Source: an uncultured Mycoplasmatota bacterium (GTDB lineage: Bacteria; Bacillota_I; Bacilli_A; RF39; UBA660). From it: DNA of 64,000 nt. The DNA lies in the NCBI GenBank assembly GCA_900551105.1, contig URUT01000001.1:857-64856 (forward strand), in the 5' to 3' direction. Position 1 is the stretch's first letter, and the number at the start of each line of letters is the position of its first letter. A model generated the notes under the pieces. It was not told the origin of the DNA. It did no database searches and was given only the letters and a program-made list of their open reading frames with translations. The translations under genes were made by a program, and so were the position numbers. Positions 15,736 to 25,471 of this stretch are shown piece by piece.

Positions 15736-18700
15736 ATGAAAAAATTAAAAAATGTAGCACAGCTATTTCTTGCATTAGCTATTACTATAACATCTATATT
15801 TAGTAATGCTTTTGTTGTATTTGCTGATGCTAACCCAAACGCTGGTAAAGTTACTGCCACTAAAACTGCAGAACGTATTGGCGATGAAACTAGCAGAAGT
15901 GCTAAAGTTAAAATAACAGTAAGTGGTAATCCTTACACTATAACTACACAAAAAGATAGAGAAATCGTTTTAGTGTTAGATGCTTCTGGTAGTATGGATA
16001 ATGGAATAAGTGGCTCTAACAAAAATAGAATAGAAACACTAAAGGACGCTGCTGAAAATTTCATTGATAGTCTTTTAACAGAAGAAAATGCTGGAAAGAT
16101 TAAAATCGGTATAGTATGGTATTCTGATAAGGATAATACCAATAAAAGTGAAGTATGTGGTTTAAATGATAATGCTACAACTCTAAAAAATTGTGTTTCT
16201 GGTAAAACTGCTAAAGGTGGTACTAACGTTCAACTTGGAATCAGTATGGCCAAAGATTTATTTACAAAAGCAGATAATGAAAAAAGCTTAATCGTTTTAT
16301 CAGACGGTGTGCCAACATACTATAATGATAAAAATGGTATTGAACATGGCCATGGTAGTGTAGACACTCATGAAGATTTATATGCTTATGATTTTGTAGC
16401 AACAAAGAATTATCAAAATAATCTTGGACAAAATGTAGCCGATGGATATATTGATTACTACGATTATAAAAGCGAAGAAACATATAGATGTGAATACGTT
16501 GGTTATAGAAGAAATCACTGGGGAAAAATCACTTATGAAAGTGAAACTTGCCAAGATGGATTTTATATGAAACCTAGTGAAGCAGCAAAAAAAGAAACAG
16601 ACTCATTTAATGGCAAAATATACTCAATTGGTTTTGGTATAACTACAACAGATTGGAGAGGTAATACCGTTACTAATGAAGAAGCTCAAAATTTCTTAAA
16701 ATCAATTGTAAAAAATGGTGGAAGTTACTTTGATGCTAGTGACACGGCTAAATTAAATGAAGCCTTTGCAGCTGTATCAAAAGATATGGAAATTGTTGCT
16801 AAAAACTTAACTATTAGAGACGTTGTTCCAAGTACATTCACTGTAGATGAAAATGACTTAAAGCAAAGATATGGTAACAATGTAACAATTACAAAAGATG
16901 AAAACACTAAAGAAACTATTATAACTTATAAATTTGCTGAATTATCTTCTAAAAAATCAGAAGAATTAACATTCAATGTAACAGCAAATGAAGATTATTA
17001 TGGTAGTATGTACACTAATAATGGTGCTACTGTTACTGGAACTGCTGCTGATGGTAATAAGTTCTATGAAAATGTTGATGGTAAGATTAACGAAAACTTA
17101 ATCGACCCAGTTGCGCCTATTGCATCAAGAACTAAAGATGATAATTACGACACAGAAACTAACAAGGAATTAGTAGTAGATGCAAGTGATGGCATTACGT
17201 CAAATGATTATAATGGAAAACAAGAAGATGAAGCAAAAAGTGTTTTAGATGAAATCATTATAGTTAACAAAACAAAATATGGTTCATTAGAGCTTAATCA
17301 AGATGGATCACTTAAATATAATCCAAATACAAACTTCCGTGGTACTGATAATTTCAAATATTATATTAAAACTACTATCACAGATAAAAATGGTAATAAG
17401 ACTTACGCAAAGTCAGACGTTGCAACTGTAACTATTAATGTTAAAGGTGTTAAGGCGACTTATACTGTTAACTATTTAGAAAAAGGTACTAATACAAAAG
17501 TAGCTGATAGCAAAACAATTTCTAAGAACGCTAATAATGAAGACTTATATATTGGTGATAAGGTTACAGAATACGCTTTAACTTTAAATAATTATAATTT
17601 AGTAAGTAATAGTCAAGAATCTATTACTCTTGCTAAAGAAGGAAATGTAATCAATTTCTATTATGAACTTAAAGATTCTAAAATCATTGTTCATCATAAA
17701 GAAAAGGGTACTGGTAGAACATTAGCAGATGATGATACTTTCACAGGTAAAGTAACTGAAACAAAAGTAATTAATGCTAAAGATATTAAAGACTATGTTG
17801 TAGTTGGCAGTAAAACACAAGAGGCTGAATTTGATTTAACTACTAACGAATATACTTTCCACTATGAAAAAGCAGAAAGTGCTGGAGCAGTAGCTCATCA
17901 CTATATCATTGATAACAATGGTAAAAAAACTGATAGAAAACTATTTAATGATGATGAAGTAACAGGTAAAATTGGTACACCATTCTCATTTAGTCCTAAA
18001 ACAGAAGGCTTAGGCGATTATGAATTTGTTGAAAGTGAAGGCACAACAAGTGGAACTCTATCTAGCACAAGACAAGAAGCAGCCTTCTACTATCAATTAA
18101 AGATGACTGATGTTACTATAAGATATGTAACAATTAAAGATGGTAATGCAATAGATTTAATTAACCCAGTTAAAGACAGTGGTAGAATTAATGATAATTA
18201 TACTGCTAATGCTAAAGATGAAAATGATAATAAAGTATTTACTAACTATAATCTAGAAAGTGCTACAGAACAAACTATTAAATTAAAAAACAGTGATAAT
18301 ACAATTACATTTATCTACTCTCTAAAGGATGCTAAAATTATTGTTCACTATGTTGAAAAAGGAACTAATAAGACACTTGCACCAGATAAAGAGTTTAATG
18401 GTAAAGTAACTAATAAATATAATGTAAGTGCAATAAATATTCCTAAATATACAGCAGTAGATACAACTTCATATAACGGAGAATATACACTAGAAACTAA
18501 GGAATACACTTTCTATTATGAGAAAAAAGAAAGTGCTGGAGCTATAGCTCATCATTACATCATTGATAAAAATGGTAACAAAACTACTGATAAGTTATTT
18601 GAAGATGATACTATATCTGGTAAACTAGATGAAGAATATTCATTTAGTGCAAAGACTGATTTAGGTGCTTATGAATTTGTAGAAAGCACTGGCAAAGTAA

Positions 18701-19743
18701 GTGGTATTCTAACTGAAGAAGTACAAGAAGCAATCTTCTACTATAGATTACAAGACTCTAAGATTATCGTTCACTATGTTGAAAAAGGAACTGATAAAAC
18801 TCTAGCACCTGACAGTGAACTTAATGGTAAAGTAACTGAAGAATTTAATATTAACGCTATAGATATTCCTAAATATAAAGTAGTAGATAAAACATCATAT
18901 ACTGGAGAGTTTACAGTAGAACCTAAAGAATATACTTTCTACTATGAAAAATTAGATAGTGCTGGTGCCATAGCTCATCATTATATTATTGATGAAAATG
19001 GTAATAAAACTACAGATAAACTATTTAAAGACGATGTAGCAACTGGAAAATTAGATGATGAATTCTCATTTAGTGCTCACACTGATTTAGGCGACTATGA
19101 ATTTGTTGAAAGTGAAGGAACTATAAGTGGTATTCTAACTGATGAAGTTCAAGAAGCAAAATTCTATTATAGATTAAAATCTGCTAAAGTAATCGTTCAT
19201 CATTATGAAGAAGGAACTACTATTAAAGTAGCAGACGATGAAACTATTGATGGAAAAGTAAGCAAAGATTATACTACTAAAGAAGCTAAGGTTATTGGTT
19301 ATGTTTTAGTAGAAATTCCACAAAATGCTACTGGTAAATTTACTGAAGAAGTAACTGAAGTCAATTACTATTACAAAAAAGATATGGGTAAAGTAATTAC
19401 TAGATATGTTGATGAAGATGGCAAAATCCTATTAGATGAAACTACTACTAACGGTCAAGTTGGTACAGACTATCAAACAAGTCCTGCAACTATCACTGAT
19501 TATGAACTTAAAAATGTAATCGGAGAAGAAAAGGGTAAATATACTAAAGAAGATATTATTGTTACTTACGTATATGAATATGTAATGGGACAAGGTGGAG
19601 ATGATACATTTGTAACTCCTGAAGAACCTGAAATTCCATATACAGGAATTGATAGTGAAAATTATATTCTAGAATATAGCTTAATGGGAACAAGTATCTT
19701 AGGTATAGCTTTATTGCTAATTTTAAAGAAGAAATTTAACTAG
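15736..19743 (+). CDS. cell-wall-anchored adhesin with a VWA domain, MucBP-like repeats and a C-terminal sortase sorting signal
   Basis: Signal peptide, then VWA MIDAS motif VLVLDASGSMD. At least five MucBP-like modules follow (KIIVHHKEKGTGRTLADDD..., KIIVHYVEKGTNKTLAPDK..., KIIVHYVEKGTDKTLAPDS..., KVIVHHYEEGTTIKVADDE..., GKVITRYVDEDGKILLDE...), including three near-identical units of about 141 aa. The C-terminus reads EIPYTGIDSEN, then a hydrophobic stretch, then KKKFN. Confidence 0.75.
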   Translation: MKKLKNVAQLFLALAITITSIFSNAFVVFADANPNAGKVTATKTAERIGDETSRSAKVKITVSGNPYTITTQKDREIVLVLDASGSMDNGISGSNKNRIETLKDAAENFIDSLLTEENAGKIKIGIVWYSDKDNTNKSEVCGLNDNATTLKNCVSGKTAKGGTNVQLGISMAKDLFTKADNEKSLIVLSDGVPTYYNDKNGIEHGHGSVDTHEDLYAYDFVATKNYQNNLGQNVADGYIDYYDYKSEETYRCEYVGYRRNHWGKITYESETCQDGFYMKPSEAAKKETDSFNGKIYSIGFGITTTDWRGNTVTNEEAQNFLKSIVKNGGSYFDASDTAKLNEAFAAVSKDMEIVAKNLTIRDVVPSTFTVDENDLKQRYGNNVTITKDENTKETIITYKFAELSSKKSEELTFNVTANEDYYGSMYTNNGATVTGTAADGNKFYENVDGKINENLIDPVAPIASRTKDDNYDTETNKELVVDASDGITSNDYNGKQEDEAKSVLDEIIIVNKTKYGSLELNQDGSLKYNPNTNFRGTDNFKYYIKTTITDKNGNKTYAKSDVATVTINVKGVKATYTVNYLEKGTNTKVADSKTISKNANNEDLYIGDKVTEYALTLNNYNLVSNSQESITLAKEGNVINFYYELKDSKIIVHHKEKGTGRTLADDDTFTGKVTETKVINAKDIKDYVVVGSKTQEAEFDLTTNEYTFHYEKAESAGAVAHHYIIDNNGKKTDRKLFNDDEVTGKIGTPFSFSPKTEGLGDYEFVESEGTTSGTLSSTRQEAAFYYQLKMTDVTIRYVTIKDGNAIDLINPVKDSGRINDNYTANAKDENDNKVFTNYNLESATEQTIKLKNSDNTITFIYSLKDAKIIVHYVEKGTNKTLAPDKEFNGKVTNKYNVSAINIPKYTAVDTTSYNGEYTLETKEYTFYYEKKESAGAIAHHYIIDKNGNKTTDKLFEDDTISGKLDEEYSFSAKTDLGAYEFVESTGKVSGILTEEVQEAIFYYRLQDSKIIVHYVEKGTDKTLAPDSELNGKVTEEFNINAIDIPKYKVVDKTSYTGEFTVEPKEYTFYYEKLDSAGAIAHHYIIDENGNKTTDKLFKDDVATGKLDDEFSFSAHTDLGDYEFVESEGTISGILTDEVQEAKFYYRLKSAKVIVHHYEEGTTIKVADDETIDGKVSKDYTTKEAKVIGYVLVEIPQNATGKFTEEVTEVNYYYKKDMGKVITRYVDEDGKILLDETTTNGQVGTDYQTSPATITDYELKNVIGEEKGKYTKEDIIVTYVYEYVMGQGGDDTFVTPEEPEIPYTGIDSENYILEYSLMGTSILGIALLLILKKKFN

Positions 19744-19975: not shown

Positions 19976-20049
19976 GCTGATTTAGTTTAGTGGTAGAATA
20001 GAAGCATGGTAAGCTTCAGAGGACTGTTCAATTCAGTCATTCAGCACCA
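19976..20049 (+). tRNA. tRNA-Thr(GGU), atypical arms
   Basis: A 74-nt cloverleaf by hand folding. Acceptor GCTGATT / ATTCAGC has one U.U mismatch. The D-loop contains GG. The anticodon stem GAAGC / GCTTC encloses loop AU-GGU-AA. The variable loop is 4 nt. T-arm GACTG-TTCAATT-CAGTC, then discriminator A and an encoded CCA. The D-stem has two G.U pairs. Confidence 0.6.
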
Positions 20050-20059
20050 GATTGCTACC

Positions 20060-20101
20060 AAACTCGAACTTTTCAATTTTTTTGATTAGTTCGAGTTTTA
20101 A
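20060..20101 (+). terminator. intrinsic terminator after the tRNA
   Basis: Ten-bp stem AAACTCGAAC / GTTCGAGTTT with a T-rich loop, then TTT. Confidence 0.5.
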
Positions 20102-20168
20102 TATACTTTAATATGATAAAGTAACAATAGAAAAAAAGGAATCTTAAAACTATGGTCAGGGGGTCTTA

Positions 20169-21056
20169 ATGAAACAAGAAATAATAAAGTCAGAATTAGA
20201 TGTTAAAGGTAGTAAAATTAATGTAGTTAGAGTTGATGGATACGAATATATATCTCTAACCGATTTAGCAAGATATGCCGATGAGGATGATCCAAGATAT
20301 CCGATACAAAACTGGATGAGGAATAAAGATGTTATTTCTTATTTAGGCTTATGGGAAAGTATTAATAATGAAAACTTCAAAGGTGTCGAATTCGACACGT
20401 TTAAAAATGAAGCTGGTAGTAATAAATTTAAAATATCTCCCCAAAAGTGGATTAGGGAAACAAATGCAGTAGGAATGATTTCCAAATCAGGTAATAATGG
20501 TGGAACATATGCTAGAAGTGATATAGCATTTGAATTTGCAAGTTGGTTAAGTCCAGAGTTTAAATTATACTTAATTCAGGAATTTCAAAGATTAAAGAAA
20601 GATGAAGCATATCAAAACAAAATAGACTGGCATGCTAATAGAGTTTTAGCAAAAGTCAGTTATATAGTTCATACTGATGCTATCCAGAGTATTATTGTTC
20701 CTACTCTTACAGAGAAGCAAAAAAAATTCATTTATGCAGAAGAAGCAGATGTTCTAAATGTTGCATTGTTTGGCATAACTGCAAAAGAATGGAGAAATAA
20801 AAATCCAAAATTAGCTGAAAATGGCAATATAAGAGACTATACAGATTTACTACATCTAGTAATATTAAATAATCTAGAAAATATAAACGCAGAATTGATT
20901 AGAATGAATATAAAACAATCTGATAGACTTATTCAATTAAATGAATCAGCAAGAAATCAAATGGAAGCTTTAAGAAATAATAAGAATGTTAAGGAATTAG
21001 AAGTATTACAACAACAAGTAAATGAAGATAATAAATATTTAATTGAGAGTAAATAA
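20169..21056 (+). CDS. KilA-N domain protein (phage / mobile-element associated DNA-binding protein)
   Basis: N-terminal KilA-N pattern (VVRVDGYEYISLTDLARYA...W....V..YLGLWESINN...F...K...I.A.K..WIRETNAVG) with a C-terminal coiled coil, in a 295-aa ORF. Confidence 0.6.
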   Translation: MKQEIIKSELDVKGSKINVVRVDGYEYISLTDLARYADEDDPRYPIQNWMRNKDVISYLGLWESINNENFKGVEFDTFKNEAGSNKFKISPQKWIRETNAVGMISKSGNNGGTYARSDIAFEFASWLSPEFKLYLIQEFQRLKKDEAYQNKIDWHANRVLAKVSYIVHTDAIQSIIVPTLTEKQKKFIYAEEADVLNVALFGITAKEWRNKNPKLAENGNIRDYTDLLHLVILNNLENINAELIRMNIKQSDRLIQLNESARNQMEALRNNKNVKELEVLQQQVNEDNKYLIESK

Positions 21057-21105: not shown

Positions 21106-21309
21106 CTTATTAATGGTGAATTTTTGTTAGAATAATTACGACCCATATATAACTCTTTTGTGTAATTTTTCTAGACATGACATATTATACAATAGGTTAA
21201 TATTTCGAATATCCAAATTGAAATTTATATTTATTTCTGATTTCACAATAAAAATACACATAATATAAAACCAACTTGTAAAAAAGCTGCTTTTGTGTTA
21301 CTATGAATA

Positions 21310-21426
21310 TGTCAAGGAAACTTGCATAAAATAAAAAAAGGGAATACTTAACTTTGCCGAGTTGAGTACTTGCCCATATTTATGGTAAAGCACTTAATCT
21401 ATGCTAGATTGAGTGCTGTTTTTCTT
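21310..21426 (+). ncRNA. small RNA, repeat-family copy 1: putative antisense RNA / antitoxin of a type I TA-like module
   Basis: Extended -10 promoter (TGtTACTAT at 21296-21304). The conserved 5' segment GTCAAGGAAACTTGCATAAAATAAAAAAGG follows. It ends with a 13-bp terminator hairpin AGCACTTAATCTA-tgc-TAGATTGAGTGCT plus a T-run (21389-21426). The same architecture recurs at about 21790 and about 25296, with compensatory changes in the stem. Confidence 0.5.
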
Positions 21427-21436
21427 ATATAGTTTA

Positions 21437-21520
21437 CTACTTTACTAAAGTAAAAAGTAAGGCTATTAGTAAGAAGATAATAATGATTAAAGAAGAGATT
21501 AAAAAATCTTTCTTGTGCAT
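21437..21520 (-). CDS. 27-aa hydrophobic peptide MHKKDFLISSLIIIIFLLIALLFTLVK, candidate type I toxin
   Basis: Strong SD GGAGG sits 9 nt before the ATG. The ORF is convergent with the + strand sRNA and ends 10 nt from its terminator hairpin. The SD can pair with an upstream CCTCC (CCTCC-aactatataaggaa-GGAGG) to form a sequestering hairpin. A paralogous peptide is at 21911-21982. Confidence 0.45.
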   Translation of the reverse strand: MHKKDFLISSLIIIIFLLIALLFTLVK

Positions 21521-21789
21521 AACTATCAGCCTCCTTCCTTATATAGTTGGAGGCAAGCACTCAACAGTTAAATATTTCCCTGTAAAAATTGTACTATATA
21601 AATTTTTACATAACAAGCGAACAATAGAAAATTTTTGTAAAAAATATTAAAATTATGTTAGTTAATAGTGATTATACTAACTATTTCTTTTACCCTAGAA
21701 ATTGTTCTACTTCTTCCTTTAGGACACTAAATTGTTTAATAATATAAAACCAACTTGTAAAAAAAGCTGCTTTTGTGTTATTATGAATA

Positions 21790-21901
21790 TGTCAAGGAAA
21801 CTTGCATAAAATAAAAAAGGAACATTCAATATTGCACTGTTGAGTGTAGCCAAAAATATGGGTTCCACCTAAATCATTGCTGAGTTAGGTGGATTTCTTT
21901 T
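21790..21901 (+). ncRNA. small RNA, repeat-family copy 2
   Basis: Extended -10 (TGtTATTAT, 21776-21784), the same conserved 5' segment, and a terminator hairpin CCACCTAAATCA-ttgc-TGAGTTAGGTGG (21865-21892) plus a T-run. The stem differs from copy 1 but still pairs. Confidence 0.5.
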
Positions 21902-21910
21902 ATATTAAAG

Positions 21911-21982
21911 CTATAAATAACAATAATAATAAAAGAAGATAATAATTACTAAAGCTAAGACTAAAAAATCTTTCTTATTCAT
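21911..21982 (-). CDS. 23-aa hydrophobic peptide MNKKDFLVLALVIIIFFYYYCYL, candidate type I toxin
   Basis: SD GGGAGG lies 8 nt before the ATG. The ORF is convergent with sRNA copy 2. Its N-terminus M.KKDFL and RBS context are conserved with the copy-1 peptide. Confidence 0.45.
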   Translation of the reverse strand: MNKKDFLVLALVIIIFFYYYCYL

Positions 21983-22107
21983 CTTTATCGCCTCCCTTCT
22001 TATTGAAGTTCGGCTCCATCCAACTTATTAAACGTTCCTTACTTGCAATGACAACAAACAAGTGTTTGAAATGTAAGATTTTTTTTAAGATGATTAAGGG
22101 TGATAAA

Positions 22108-23340
22108 ATGACAAAATATATAACTTTAAAAAACACTAATTTTGAAATTCTAGTTCCTGCAACATTAAAAACTTATGGAGAAGAAGTATTAAAATATTCA
22201 TCAAAAAAGTTAAAAGAATATTTATTGTTTTTTAAAGAGAAACCTAAGGATATAAAAATAAAAGGCTCCTTTTTAACCAATTATAGTGACTTTATAAATA
22301 GAATAAAAGAAGTATCAGGACCAAACGTTCAACTACCACCAGATTGGGCAACTGGCTGCTTTTATGGTGGTGAAATTCAAATTTTACTTGACGAAAATAA
22401 ACCATACGAAAAATTTACTACTCTTGCTCACGAAACATTTCATATATTATTTTCTAAATTCATTTATGAAAAATACAATATAAGTAGAATAGTATGGCTT
22501 GATGAAGCTCTAGCTAGTAGCTTTGATGGTACCACCGAAAAATTAATTAAAGATAATACTTTTAAAGACATAGTAAATAAATTAATAAATAATGAAAAAC
22601 TTCCTAAATTAAACAATTTATCTTTTGCTAAAGGCAACATCGTAAGCGATGAGTATAACGGCTATGACTTATTTAAAGTAGTTGGTAGATACCTAATTGA
22701 AACCAAAAGTAATTTACTGTCATATATCAAAAACGAAGAACAAATTTTAAACGATGGAGAAACTTTATTAGATGAAAGCATTAACTACTTTAAATCAAAA
22801 TATAATTTAAGCAAAAATTATTATTGGCTTTACAAAACACCAAAAAGCTTAGATGATTTAATCATGAATAGTGATGGTACATCTTTAACAAGGCTCTGCT
22901 TTATTAACTCTAAAGATGAAAAGAAATGTAGCTTAAATGGTATCAAAGAATTTTTACCAATTTTTAAAGAAACCTCTGCTTGGTTAGATATTTATTTTAA
23001 GGGGCAAATTCCAAATTTTACACCAAAATACAAAATAGATAATTTAACTCTATTTAGACAGGAAGTAATTGATATTATGAATACTATTCCTTACGGAAAA
23101 ACGATAACCTATAATGCCATTGCTAAATCTATTGCTAAAAAAAGGAAAATATCAAAAATGTCAGGGCAAGCAGTAGGTGGAGCCGTAGGATGGAACCCAA
23201 TTTGTATCATCATCCCATGTCATAGAGTAGTAGGAGCAAATGGCAATTTAACTGGCTATGGTGGCGGCCTAAACAATAAAATAGAACTTTTAAAAATAGA
23301 AAAAAATAATATGCAAGATTTTCATCTTCCGAAGATTTAG
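22108..23340 (+). CDS. fusion protein: N-terminal HExxH (zinc-metallopeptidase-like) domain plus C-terminal methylated-DNA--protein-cysteine methyltransferase (Ogt/MGMT) domain
   Basis: The C-terminal 90 aa carry the MGMT DNA-binding and active-site signature (IPYGKTITYNAIAKSI...SGQAVGGAVGWNPICIIIPCHRVVGANG...GYGGGLNNKIELLKIE). The N-terminal region of about 320 aa contains TLAHETFHILF (HExxH) and has no MGMT N-domain. The start is chosen at ATG 22108 (RBS AAGGGTGA); the ORF is open from 22003. Confidence 0.65.
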   Translation: MTKYITLKNTNFEILVPATLKTYGEEVLKYSSKKLKEYLLFFKEKPKDIKIKGSFLTNYSDFINRIKEVSGPNVQLPPDWATGCFYGGEIQILLDENKPYEKFTTLAHETFHILFSKFIYEKYNISRIVWLDEALASSFDGTTEKLIKDNTFKDIVNKLINNEKLPKLNNLSFAKGNIVSDEYNGYDLFKVVGRYLIETKSNLLSYIKNEEQILNDGETLLDESINYFKSKYNLSKNYYWLYKTPKSLDDLIMNSDGTSLTRLCFINSKDEKKCSLNGIKEFLPIFKETSAWLDIYFKGQIPNFTPKYKIDNLTLFRQEVIDIMNTIPYGKTITYNAIAKSIAKKRKISKMSGQAVGGAVGWNPICIIIPCHRVVGANGNLTGYGGGLNNKIELLKIEKNNMQDFHLPKI

Positions 23341-23388: not shown

Positions 23389-23604
23389 ATGAATAAAGTA
23401 CCAAATATAATTAGTACAAAAGATTTAGATTATCTAAGTGACATGTTTAACTGGAACTACGGCGCATACAAATCTTGCATCAATATGCTTGAAGAAATCA
23501 CTGATCAAAAGCTATGTAATTTAGCTTCAAAATGTGCAAAATTATTTGCAACTAACATGGATAATGTTTTAAACATTCTAGAAAGTGGTGAAGCAAATGA
23601 ATAA
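23389..23604 (+). CDS. CotF-like (Coat_F domain) spore coat protein, small
   Basis: Coat_F pattern (DLDYLSDMF..E..AYKSC....EEITDQKL) in a 71-aa ORF. It is paired and overlapping with the next Coat_F gene, as is typical. Confidence 0.5.
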   Translation: MNKVPNIISTKDLDYLSDMFNWNYGAYKSCINMLEEITDQKLCNLASKCAKLFATNMDNVLNILESGEANE

Positions 23605-23920
23605 AAATATGGTTCAAAATAAAAAAACAACCACGCCAAAAGGTATTTGTTTAAACGATAAAGATTATATGAATAGTATCTTATCATCTCTTAAAGAAAT
23701 GAGTAAGAATTACACAGTAGCGCTAACTGAAGCTAGTAATGAAACTTTATTTAAATCAATAAAAAAAGATTTTGACAATATCATTAAAATGCAAAGAGAA
23801 GTTTATGAAGAAATGTTTACAAATGGCTGGTATGCTTTAGAAAAATCTGAAACCACAAAAATCAAAACTAAATATGATATGTTATGTACTGAACTAAGTG
23901 ATTTAGAAAGTGAGGAATAA
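23585..23920 (+). CDS. CotF-like (Coat_F domain) spore coat protein
   Basis: LNDKDYMNSILSSLKEMSKNYTVALTEASNETLFKSIKKDF......EEMFTNGWY matches the Coat_F consensus (lnD.D.l...L...K...a....Ea.n..lr.....f......e.f..M...GWY). Confidence 0.6.
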   Translation: MVKQMNKNMVQNKKTTTPKGICLNDKDYMNSILSSLKEMSKNYTVALTEASNETLFKSIKKDFDNIIKMQREVYEEMFTNGWYALEKSETTKIKTKYDMLCTELSDLESEE

Positions 23921-25258: not shown

Positions 25259-25295
25259 AACTTGAAAAGAGATCTTCTTTTTTGTATAATGTATT

Positions 25296-25407
25296 TGTCA
25301 AGGAAACTTGCATAAAATAAAAAAGGAACATCTAATTTTAGCAGGTTGGGGGTTGTCGATATGTTGGTTTCACCTAAATCATTGCTGAGTTAGGTGATTT
25401 TCTTTTT
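25296..25407 (+). ncRNA. small RNA / 5' leader, repeat-family copy 3, upstream of the DUF1848-like gene
   Basis: Extended -10 (TGtATAAT, 25282-25290), the conserved GTCAAGGAAACTTGCATAAAATAAAAAAGGAACAT segment, and a terminator hairpin TCACCTAAATCA-ttgc-TGAGTTAGGTGA (25370-25397) plus T-run. This copy has no opposite-strand peptide ORF, and the next gene starts at 25472. Confidence 0.5.
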
Positions 25408-25471
25408 ATACTAAAACTACGAATAGTAATAATACTAATAGGAAGATAATAATGATTAAGGAGCGAAATCT

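Follow-up and report, generated by a model that had tools for sequence, protein, structure and literature searches.

A probable new family of type I toxin-antitoxin modules with covarying small RNAs in uncultured gut Bacilli

Known toxin-antitoxin systems of type I reportedly occur only in Proteobacteria, Firmicutes, and Tenericutes (PMC12390103), and most of the known loci were found via homology to known toxins (PMC8594479). Fst/RNAII and SprA1 consist of convergent genes, with an antisense RNA placed 3′ of the toxin mRNA and outside the open reading frame (ORF), whereas that of the TxpA/RatA and BsrG-type families extends over the 3′ part of the ORF (PMC8594479). In RatA/txpA and SR4/bsrG, the duplex of small RNA (sRNA) and mRNA is cut by RNase III (PMC3531473, PMC3834814). 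In hok, according to the work of Franch et al. (1997) as summarized in PMC8594479, a 5′-3′ fold-back element locks the full-length mRNA, and metastable mRNA structures have been described for aapA1 (PMC6733600). Toxins of the Fst/Ldr family carry the motif APxxxG (PMC8309996), and Fozo et al. searched for new families by looking for short ORFs that have a transmembrane segment and polar ends and are duplicated in tandem within intergenic DNA (PMC2887945). The subject of this analysis is a set of small modules, each pairing a plus-strand sRNA gene with a convergent minus-strand peptide ORF, in a 64,000-nucleotide (nt) AT-rich stretch of DNA (the window) from contig URUT01000001.1 of an uncultured Mycoplasmatota bacterium (RF39; UBA660; assembly GCA_900551105.1). 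These modules probably belong to a type I toxin-antitoxin family not described before, in which a 3′-overlapping sRNA would exert control through mRNA decay. Systems of this kind are already known, and the family itself is apparently undescribed.

Two direct repeat units with a period of ~480 nt were located between positions 21260 and 22040 of the window. The 30-mer GTCAAGGAAACTTGCATAAAATAAAAAAGG occurs at 21311 (one mismatch), 21791, and 25297, where none would be expected from shuffled sequences. Each copy is preceded by a TG-extended −10 box and followed ~80 nt downstream by a hairpin containing G+C and then a T run (21389-21417, 21864-21893, and ~25367-25396). An earlier model reading made without database searches (the sequence-only reading) had described adjacent tandem units, extended −10 promoters with a conserved 5′ segment, and terminator arms that differ between copies yet stay complementary, and all of these were recovered. 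In unit 1, the sRNA and candidate antitoxin (21311-21424, plus strand; covariance-model match of 107.9 bits) is composed of a hairpin P1 with a GAAA loop (21309-21327), an A-rich linker (21328-21339), a second hairpin P2 (21340-21375), and a 13-bp terminator T (21389-21417) with a U tract running to 21424. Its predicted fold has an energy of −35.6 kcal/mol (z = −5.6). The promoter read from the sequence (21276-21304, plus strand) has a −35 box TTGTAA (21276-21281), a 17-nt spacer, and an extended −10 box TG-T-TACTAT (21296-21304), and its TaTGtTAtTATGAATAT box also lies upstream of 134 homologous units. The unit 2 sRNA (21791-21903, plus strand; 103.4 bits) has P2 at 21819-21851, T at 21864-21893 as a 13-nt inverted repeat, and a U tract to 21903; a promoter scan placed its promoter at 21755-21784 on the same strand, with TTGTAA, an 18-nt spacer, and a TG-extended TATTAT. 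The unit 3 sRNA (25297-25405, plus strand; 93.3 bits) is an orphan copy with the promoter TGTATAAT at 25283-25290.

Homologues were identified by scanning a one-genome-per-species collection with an exact 20-mer from the conserved P1 segment. At least 120 contigs matched, and all family counts given here rest on the loci among the matches listed for this 20-mer, together with the window. The exact 20-mer is carried by 135 units, and the covariance model, the kind of search of other loci that the sequence-only reading had recommended, added 13 further units with diverged 5′ ends; run with filters off on the window, it returned exactly the three copies (108, 103, and 93 bits). All matched genomes are metagenome assembled. 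They come from gut samples of rabbit, mouse, chicken, goat, and human and bear labels such as uncultured Bacilli, Tenericutes, Mollicutes, or Erysipelotrichaceae. Although several contigs hold two to four units, copy number per genome is low. The copies have diverged into six subtypes (A to F), among which the sequences of the P2 and T arms change jointly with the peptide. The modules sit amid ordinary chromosomal genes; an exact 21-mer scan of viral contigs gave no match, nor did BLASTN in distant mode against a plasmid collection and a phage collection. Two of the loci, L026 and L100, are pieces of a single contig (JAUNFS010000010.1) from a close relative of the window.

The conserved convergent genes, the covarying sRNA, the coding signature, the sequestration of the Shine-Dalgarno (SD) sequence, and the cognate-specific complementarity described below were computed directly. 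Across the family the sRNA is ~105 to 120 nt long and has the layout of unit 1, a near-invariant P1 and A-rich linker followed by a variable P2 and a variable intrinsic terminator. A covariation alignment of 106 distinct sequences gave a consensus fold with the three helices P1, P2, and T. Standard base pairs were formed in 97.4% of cells over the whole structure, compared with 25 to 37% when the partner was slid by one to three columns. Compensatory cells, in which both sides had changed, numbered 304 against 67 in shuffles, and none of 500 shuffles reached 304; pairs with a double change numbered 12 against 9.5. Thus, P2 and T covary strongly. G-U pairs are frequent and would read as A-C mismatches on the opposite strand, so that the selected structure is that of the plus strand. 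The invariance of P1 in this alignment is due only to the position of the search motif, which falls within it. Among the copies found by the model and not by the 20-mer, one has a compensatory C3G/G14C change in P1, and others retain a stem-loop. Using Rfam at the gathering threshold, only two tRNAs were identified in the whole window, and a cmscan search of 21200-22100 with E values up to 10 returned chance matches only (the best, Arrc14, scored 23 bits against a gathering score of 99).

The segment formed by the P1 hairpin and the A-rich linker (21311-21340, 21791-21820, and 25297-25326 in the window) is almost invariant across more than 100 species, while the remainder of the module diversifies into subtypes. 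Conservation of the linker is explained by a role on the opposite strand, where its complement would provide the U tract of the toxin mRNA (see below). That role leaves unaccounted for the conservation of the P1 sequence itself, over and above its pairing, which may reflect protein binding or a stability signal. In five loci an extra tandem copy of the T 5′ arm lies between P2 and T (L017:4227-4354, L028:2552-2681, L037:7745-7872, L055:5299-5425, and L111:3101-3230), which may be an alternative pairing partner or a slippage product.

The constant partner of the sRNA is an ORF on the opposite strand. An antisense ORF of 15 to 60 codons that starts with ATG, has a strong SD sequence, and ends just past the terminator was found in 96 of the 119 units with enough flanking sequence. 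Under strict patterns that include subtype F, the ORF is intact in 91 of the 119, and most of the others hold recognizable disabled remnants, so the opposite-strand ORF that the sequence-only reading had seen in the window is kept in homologous loci. The encoded peptides are 24 to 30 amino acids long and have a Lys-rich N terminus and a single predicted transmembrane helix, formed by a core run of 18 to 20 residues rich in Leu, Ile, Val, and Phe. They usually end in Lys, with a C-terminal K or KK in most subtypes. Subtype A follows the pattern MxKKDFLIxSLIIIIxLLIxLLF..., and subtypes B to F are represented by MKKKDLLISFLILIIILLIVSLMILCIKK, MKTKTFIIKVLKLIAIILFLLIIMIVVIKK, MTKREFSQFIIILLLFLVVIILLLK, MKKRTFIIKVLRYIAIILLLLTLLVIAIKI, and MRKSEKTLMNIIILLIIVILVILIKIVPTV, respectively. 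Within subtypes, codon position 2 varies 1.6 to 5 times less than positions 1 and 3, and synonymous codon differences exceed nonsynonymous ones in subtypes B and D. As judged from sequence variation, this is the pattern of a peptide selected to remain hydrophobic and thus of a real coding gene. A size below ~60 amino acids, a predicted transmembrane helix, and charged or polar termini are as expected for type I toxins, and the modules fit the generic description of Fozo et al. in peptide size and charge pattern, in the transmembrane segment, and in their tandem duplication within intergenic DNA.

Unit 1 encodes the subtype A peptide and candidate toxin, of 27 amino acids (MHKKDFLISSLIIIIFLLIALLFTLVK; 21437-21520, minus strand), which is intact and identical to the peptide encoded in L026. 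Pfam and NCBIfam profile searches with the peptides gave nothing above noise, the best scores being noise from transmembrane segments, in agreement with the lack of similarity to named families noted from the sequence. Exact look-up of eight peptides in a collection of 15 billion proteins found none; gene callers therefore miss them completely, as they are too short for standard callers. A full-text literature search with the peptide and RNA strings had no match, and no description of this sRNA/peptide family was found in the literature on type I toxin-antitoxin systems and small-protein catalogues. The ORFs had also been described as convergent and as ending 10 nt from the terminator hairpin. 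They are convergent, but in the window they end 17 to 19 nt from the hairpin stem, and the ~10 nt is the distance from the stop codon to the end of the U tract, as in subtypes A to E; in subtype F the sRNA overlaps the ORF by a few codons.

Antisense sRNAs were present for all 103 toxin-like ORFs in the loci, 99 with a recognizable P1 and 4 with a variant 5′ end. In the other direction, ~24% of sRNAs face a disabled ORF, which has lost its start codon, suffered a 5′ deletion, or acquired a nonsense codon or a frameshift. This one-sided decay runs in the direction predicted for a toxic gene, although sampling was biased towards sRNAs. Two of the three window copies are of this sort. The unit 2 ORF (21911-21982, minus strand) and that of unit 1 had been reported from the sequence as ORFs of 23 to 27 codons with strong SD sequences, and both are present, with GGAGG in unit 1 and GGGAGG (21991-21996) in unit 2. 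The 23-amino-acid peptide of unit 2 (MNKKDFLVLALVIIIFFYYYCYL) is the product of a frameshift: alignment with L026, which encodes the 27-amino-acid MNKKDFLVLALVIIIFLLLLLLFIALI, revealed a 1-nt deletion (ATCTTCCTTTT to ATCTTCTTTT) that changes the peptide end from ...IIIFLLLLLLFIALI to ...IIIFFYYYCYL. The sRNA of unit 2 is intact despite this frameshift; its toxin-side −10 box, CATTGC, looks degenerate. The third copy referred to in the sequence-only reading has its sRNA and merely a 3′ remnant of the ORF, comprising the last 17 codons (LIIIIFLLVLLLLFVVL*; 25406-25459, minus strand), the 5′ part having been lost at a junction with a plus-strand DUF1848 gene; L100 carries an identical truncation. 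Unit 1 is the only place in the window where an intact convergent 27-codon hydrophobic ORF was found and, by its sequence, the only copy that looks functional.

The two ends of the toxin mRNA were placed by sequence features. On the minus strand of homologous units, a TATAAT-like box, often TG extended, lies 6 to 9 nt upstream of a segment X, which together with a following segment X′ is a same-sense copy of both arms of the cognate sRNA hairpin P2, with the loop omitted. An anti-SD sequence (CCUCC, CUCC, or CCCUUUC) follows directly after X-X′, and then the SD sequence. In unit 1 the predicted promoter (21588-21616, minus strand; promoter scan) has a −35 box TTGTTA (21611-21616) and a −10 box TACAAT (21588-21593), the 5′ end of the mRNA carries GGGAAAUAUUUAAC-U-GUUGAGUGCUUGCC as X and X′ (21552-21580), and GGAGG (21530-21534) forms a stem-loop with CCUCC (21549-21553) on the same strand in both the minimum-free-energy fold and the centroid, so that the sequestration proposed for this copy from the sequence was borne out. 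The X-X′ segment of unit 2 lies at 22008-22038 on the minus strand. At the other end, all 91 modules have the P2 complement followed by 9 to 11 T in the next 12 nt, supplied by the complement of the A-rich linker, and this has the form of an intrinsic terminator for the toxin mRNA; in unit 1 the reverse complement of P2 is followed by U7AUU. The antisense strand of unit 1 fits the sRNA covariance model weakly (27 bits). The T complement on the minus strand has no U tract. The possibility that T is a shared bidirectional terminator, as in par, was rejected because the U tract follows the P2 complement and not the T complement. With termination at the P2 complement, the toxin mRNA would be ~225 to 250 nt long and end inside the sRNA gene, giving a predicted 3′ overlap of ~90 to 100 nt in which the mRNA end is fully complementary to the sRNA; for unit 1 the predicted full-length mRNA spans 21330-21580 (minus strand; ~250 nt), both ends being inferred. 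The separate antisense RNA gene complementary to the toxin mRNA that is expected of a type I system is thus present, with an overlap that depends on these inferred ends.

Because X-X′ copies P2, it is also complementary to the 3′ end of its own mRNA. For unit 1, the mRNA predicted to run from 21580 to 21330 has a fold energy of −77.7 kcal/mol (z = −7.4); in this fold its first 26 nt are base-paired with the 3′ end and CCUCC with GGAGG. The predicted folds of 81 of the 91 modules join 15 or more of the first 25 nt to the last 60 nt, and within the 12-nt SD region ~8 to 10 nt are paired. Duplexes between the 5′ untranslated region (UTR) and the P2 complement have predicted energies of −32 to −37 kcal/mol for cognate and −12 to −20 kcal/mol for noncognate partners from other subtypes, and the cognate duplex is the stronger in 90 of 91 modules. 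Pairing between the toxin 5′ UTR and the sRNA itself is modest (cognate, −16 to −23; noncognate, −11 to −18 kcal/mol) and lies upstream of the SD sequence. In an alignment of 59 end-to-end constructs, pre-selected for a 5′-3′ paired fold, the long-range helix was 87.4% paired against 36 to 47% in slid controls. Compensatory cells numbered 255, whereas shuffles gave 90 and none of 500 reached the observed value.

From these features the following sequence of events can be proposed. The plus-strand promoter, strong and with an extended −10 box, would produce the sRNA of ~105 to 120 nt. The convergent mRNA would be read through the T complement and stop at the P2 complement, with the complement of the linker as its U tract. 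Its first ~28 nt (X and X′) would pair with its own 3′ end, stacked on the anti-SD/SD helix, and this 5′-3′ clamp would hold the message stable yet poorly translated. The sRNA would bind the 3′ overlap, probably first through the complementary T loops, displace the mRNA 5′ end, and create a long duplex. RNase III could then attack the duplex and a 5′ exonuclease the freed 5′ end, so that the mRNA would be destroyed before the peptide accumulates. Upon loss of the sRNA, the peptide would enter the membrane and growth would stop. The six subtype-specific sets of X, X′, and T sequences would prevent cross-talk between paralogous modules in one genome. The type I interpretation made from the sequence alone is supported as far as computation reaches: the ORF is kept and the RNA covaries in homologous loci, and the computational tests for its refutation that this reading had named were all passed.

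Several points weigh against this interpretation or parts of it. Collecting the loci through the sRNA motif makes P1 look more conserved than it is and skews the orphan statistics. Promoters, transcription starts, and the toxin terminator, and hence the overlap, are all predictions. The mean energy of P2 is −7.7 kcal/mol on the minus strand against −11.8 kcal/mol on the plus strand, and termination of the toxin mRNA there could therefore be inefficient. Besides the pre-selection of the constructs, the covariation of the 5′-3′ helix is logically the same thing as the similarity of X-X′ to P2 and therefore cannot by itself separate fold-back in cis from an exchange of arms in trans. The predicted unpaired probability of the SD sequence is 0.22 in the free mRNA and 0.30 with the 3′ overlap blocked (partition function), and closing of the SD sequence by sRNA binding, as by SR4 on bsrG, was not supported. 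As blocking the overlap leaves the SD sequence no less accessible, control via mRNA decay is favored over a direct translational block, and this decay proposal is drawn by analogy with RatA/txpA and SR4/bsrG. Lastly, the peptide is presumed toxic only from its features and the pattern of decay.

Compared with described systems, the modules are closest in layout to Fst/RNAII (par of pAD1) and SprA1/SprA1as. These share the convergent arrangement with the antisense RNA on the toxin 3′ side and outside the ORF (five of six subtypes here), a toxin SD sequence sequestered by upstream sequence, a repeated element common to the toxin 5′ region and the sRNA, and a peptide of ~30 amino acids with a single transmembrane helix. 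The present peptides differ in having no APxxxG or PxxxGC motif, no Pro/Gly motif in the transmembrane segment, and no NCBIfam or Pfam match, and the sRNA has no match to the Rfam RNAII family. In par, direct repeats give complementary RNAs and pairing over the translation start, whereas here the repeats are inverted in the DNA and give same-sense copies, with the modest 5′ UTR/sRNA pairing placed upstream of the SD sequence. Likewise, par has a shared bidirectional terminator, whereas here the T complement is without a U tract and the predicted toxin terminator is the P2 complement.

The sequence-only reading had likened the layout to txpA/RatA. The convergent genes and the predicted 3′ overlap agree with this, but the position of the sRNA outside the ORF in five of six subtypes is nearer to Fst/RNAII and SprA1. 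With TxpA/RatA, BsrG/SR4, BsrE/SR5, and YonT/SR6 of Bacillus subtilis, the modules share chromosomal location, convergent genes with a long 3′ overlap (predicted here) in which each terminator lies inside the other gene, and, by analogy, a likely degradation of the sRNA-mRNA duplex by RNase III. They differ from this group in that the overlap reaches the ORF in subtype F only, the toxins are unrelated (no profile match; 24 to 30 amino acids here against 30 to 59), and the 5′ end of the mRNA has a predicted pairing partner at the extreme 3′ end; in addition, unlike SR4/bsrG, predicted SD accessibility is not lowered by an occupied overlap. As in hok/Sok of plasmid R1 and AapA1/IsoA1 of Helicobacter pylori, long-range 5′-3′ pairing is predicted to lock the mRNA and keep the SD sequence closed, which is a functional analogy only. 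Those are Gram-negative systems whose antisense RNA targets the 5′ region or the ORF, whereas the sRNA here would bind the very 3′ segment with which the mRNA 5′ end is predicted to pair. Their peptides are not related to the present ones (no Hok profile match), and no mok-like leader or upstream overlapping ORF is present.

A more elaborate version can be put forward tentatively, and is rather doubtful as a whole, in which the antitoxin is a mimic of the toxin mRNA 5′ end. The X/X′ motif occurs three times per module, in the toxin 5′ end, T, and P2, and the three copies would act jointly as a three-way RNA switch. The mRNA would protect itself by the 5′-3′ clamp, and the sRNA, displacing a strand at the 3′ end, would unclamp the message and expose it to 5′ and double-strand-specific nucleases. 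P1 and the A-rich domain would serve as a common chassis, perhaps as a protein-binding or stability handle, for six orthogonal specificity cassettes. The modules might further home to the 3′ flanks of tRNA operons, where the promoter hairpin would double as a tRNA terminator.

The type I reading has one competitor of some weight, although an unlikely one, namely that the peptide is a small nontoxic membrane protein tuned by a cis-encoded antisense RNA, with the same genes and RNA structures. The coding signature and the sRNA fit this equally well, the computed evidence gives no measure of toxicity, and the setting among ordinary chromosomal genes, with no plasmid or phage match, is in keeping with it. 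It accounts less readily for tandem or multiple paralogues of distinct specificity on one contig, for three layers of translational and stability control, and for a peptide whose size and charge pattern fit published type I toxin criteria (PMC2887945). The one-sided decay, in which ~24% of sRNAs lack an intact ORF and none of 103 ORFs lacks an sRNA, also speaks for a toxin.

It is very improbable that the plus-strand RNA is a cis-acting attenuator or leader, with P2 as the 1:2 and T as the 3:4 hairpin, that regulates read-through to downstream plus-strand genes or across the peptide gene. In the window, units 2 and 3 do lie upstream of plus-strand genes, and in every subtype the P2 3′ arm resembles the T 3′ arm, such that a 2:3 pairing of 8 to 10 bp with the T 5′ arm is always possible. 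However, the predicted stability of P2 together with T far exceeds that of this alternative, no Rfam cis-regulatory family matched, and there is no conserved same-strand neighbor, the upstream genes being unrelated across loci and the downstream context not surveyed. In all cases it is the antisense ORF that forms the conserved partner. A riboswitch or leader for units 2 and 3 was rejected on the same grounds, as the antisense ORF is the sole conserved partner and upstream genes vary. More improbable still is a selfish repeat, such as a miniature inverted-repeat element, spreading at tRNA 3′ flanks with DNA-level hairpins and an incidental ORF: P2 and the toxin X-X′ do form an imperfect inverted repeat ~230 bp apart, and 42 of the 135 units are found behind a conserved trailer, ~80 nt downstream of various tRNA genes, but G-U pairs mark the helices as strand-specific RNA structures, the ORF shows codon-position bias and a conserved SD sequence and start, promoter and P1 are conserved outside the inverted repeat, copies are few per genome and diverged into subtypes, and no target-site duplication or transposase was seen.

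The sRNA/peptide family has no detectable similarity to known type I families and is abundant in uncultured gut Bacilli of rabbit, mouse, chicken, and human, hosts in which type I systems have not been looked at. The six covarying subtypes on one conserved scaffold form a natural set of probably orthogonal RNA regulators, which bears on the evolution of antitoxin specificity and on the engineering of RNA devices from type I systems (PMC12721322). The module would also join a Gram-positive-style 3′ overlap with a hok-like 5′-3′ clamp, features so far reported from separate lineages.

A hairpin with an A tract on one side and a T tract on the other encloses the sRNA promoter in 91 of 134 homologous units (21270-21295 and 21749-21775 in the window). 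Its loop carries the −35 hexamer, and between loci its stem shows covariation. The arrangement resembles a bidirectional terminator, for instance for an upstream tRNA operon, fused to a promoter. Seventeen units have a plain TTGACA and no promoter hairpin.

No conserved upstream protein gene, as would be found in a three-component system, was identified across the loci. Of the 135 units, 42 begin 76 to 92 nt (mostly 79 to 83) downstream of a same-strand tRNA gene for Leu, Thr, Arg, Met, Ala, or Lys. The spacer between tRNA and module is conserved and consists of GATTGATAGGAAA, a small hairpin CTCGA...TCGAG, TAACAATAGAAA, and the promoter hairpin (for example, L029:1221-1374, L109:3768-3930, and 19976-20135 in the window). 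In the window, the trailer follows tRNA-Thr(GGT), and a KilA-N gene (20169-21056) lies between the trailer and unit 1; it looks like an insertion into an older tRNA-module arrangement. Directly upstream of tRNA-Thr, a plus-strand gene (15736-19743) encodes a predicted surface protein of 1,335 amino acids with a signal peptide, several long internal repeats, and a C-terminal hydrophobic anchor.

Downstream of the tandem units, a plus-strand gene (22108-23340) encodes a 410-amino-acid protein with the DNA-binding domain of 6-O-methylguanine-DNA methyltransferase at its C terminus and an HExxH-like motif (TLAHETFHILF) in its N-terminal half, an unusual fusion. It is followed by two small adjacent plus-strand genes (23389-23920), the second of which encodes a spore-coat F domain, suggesting that the uncultured host forms spores.

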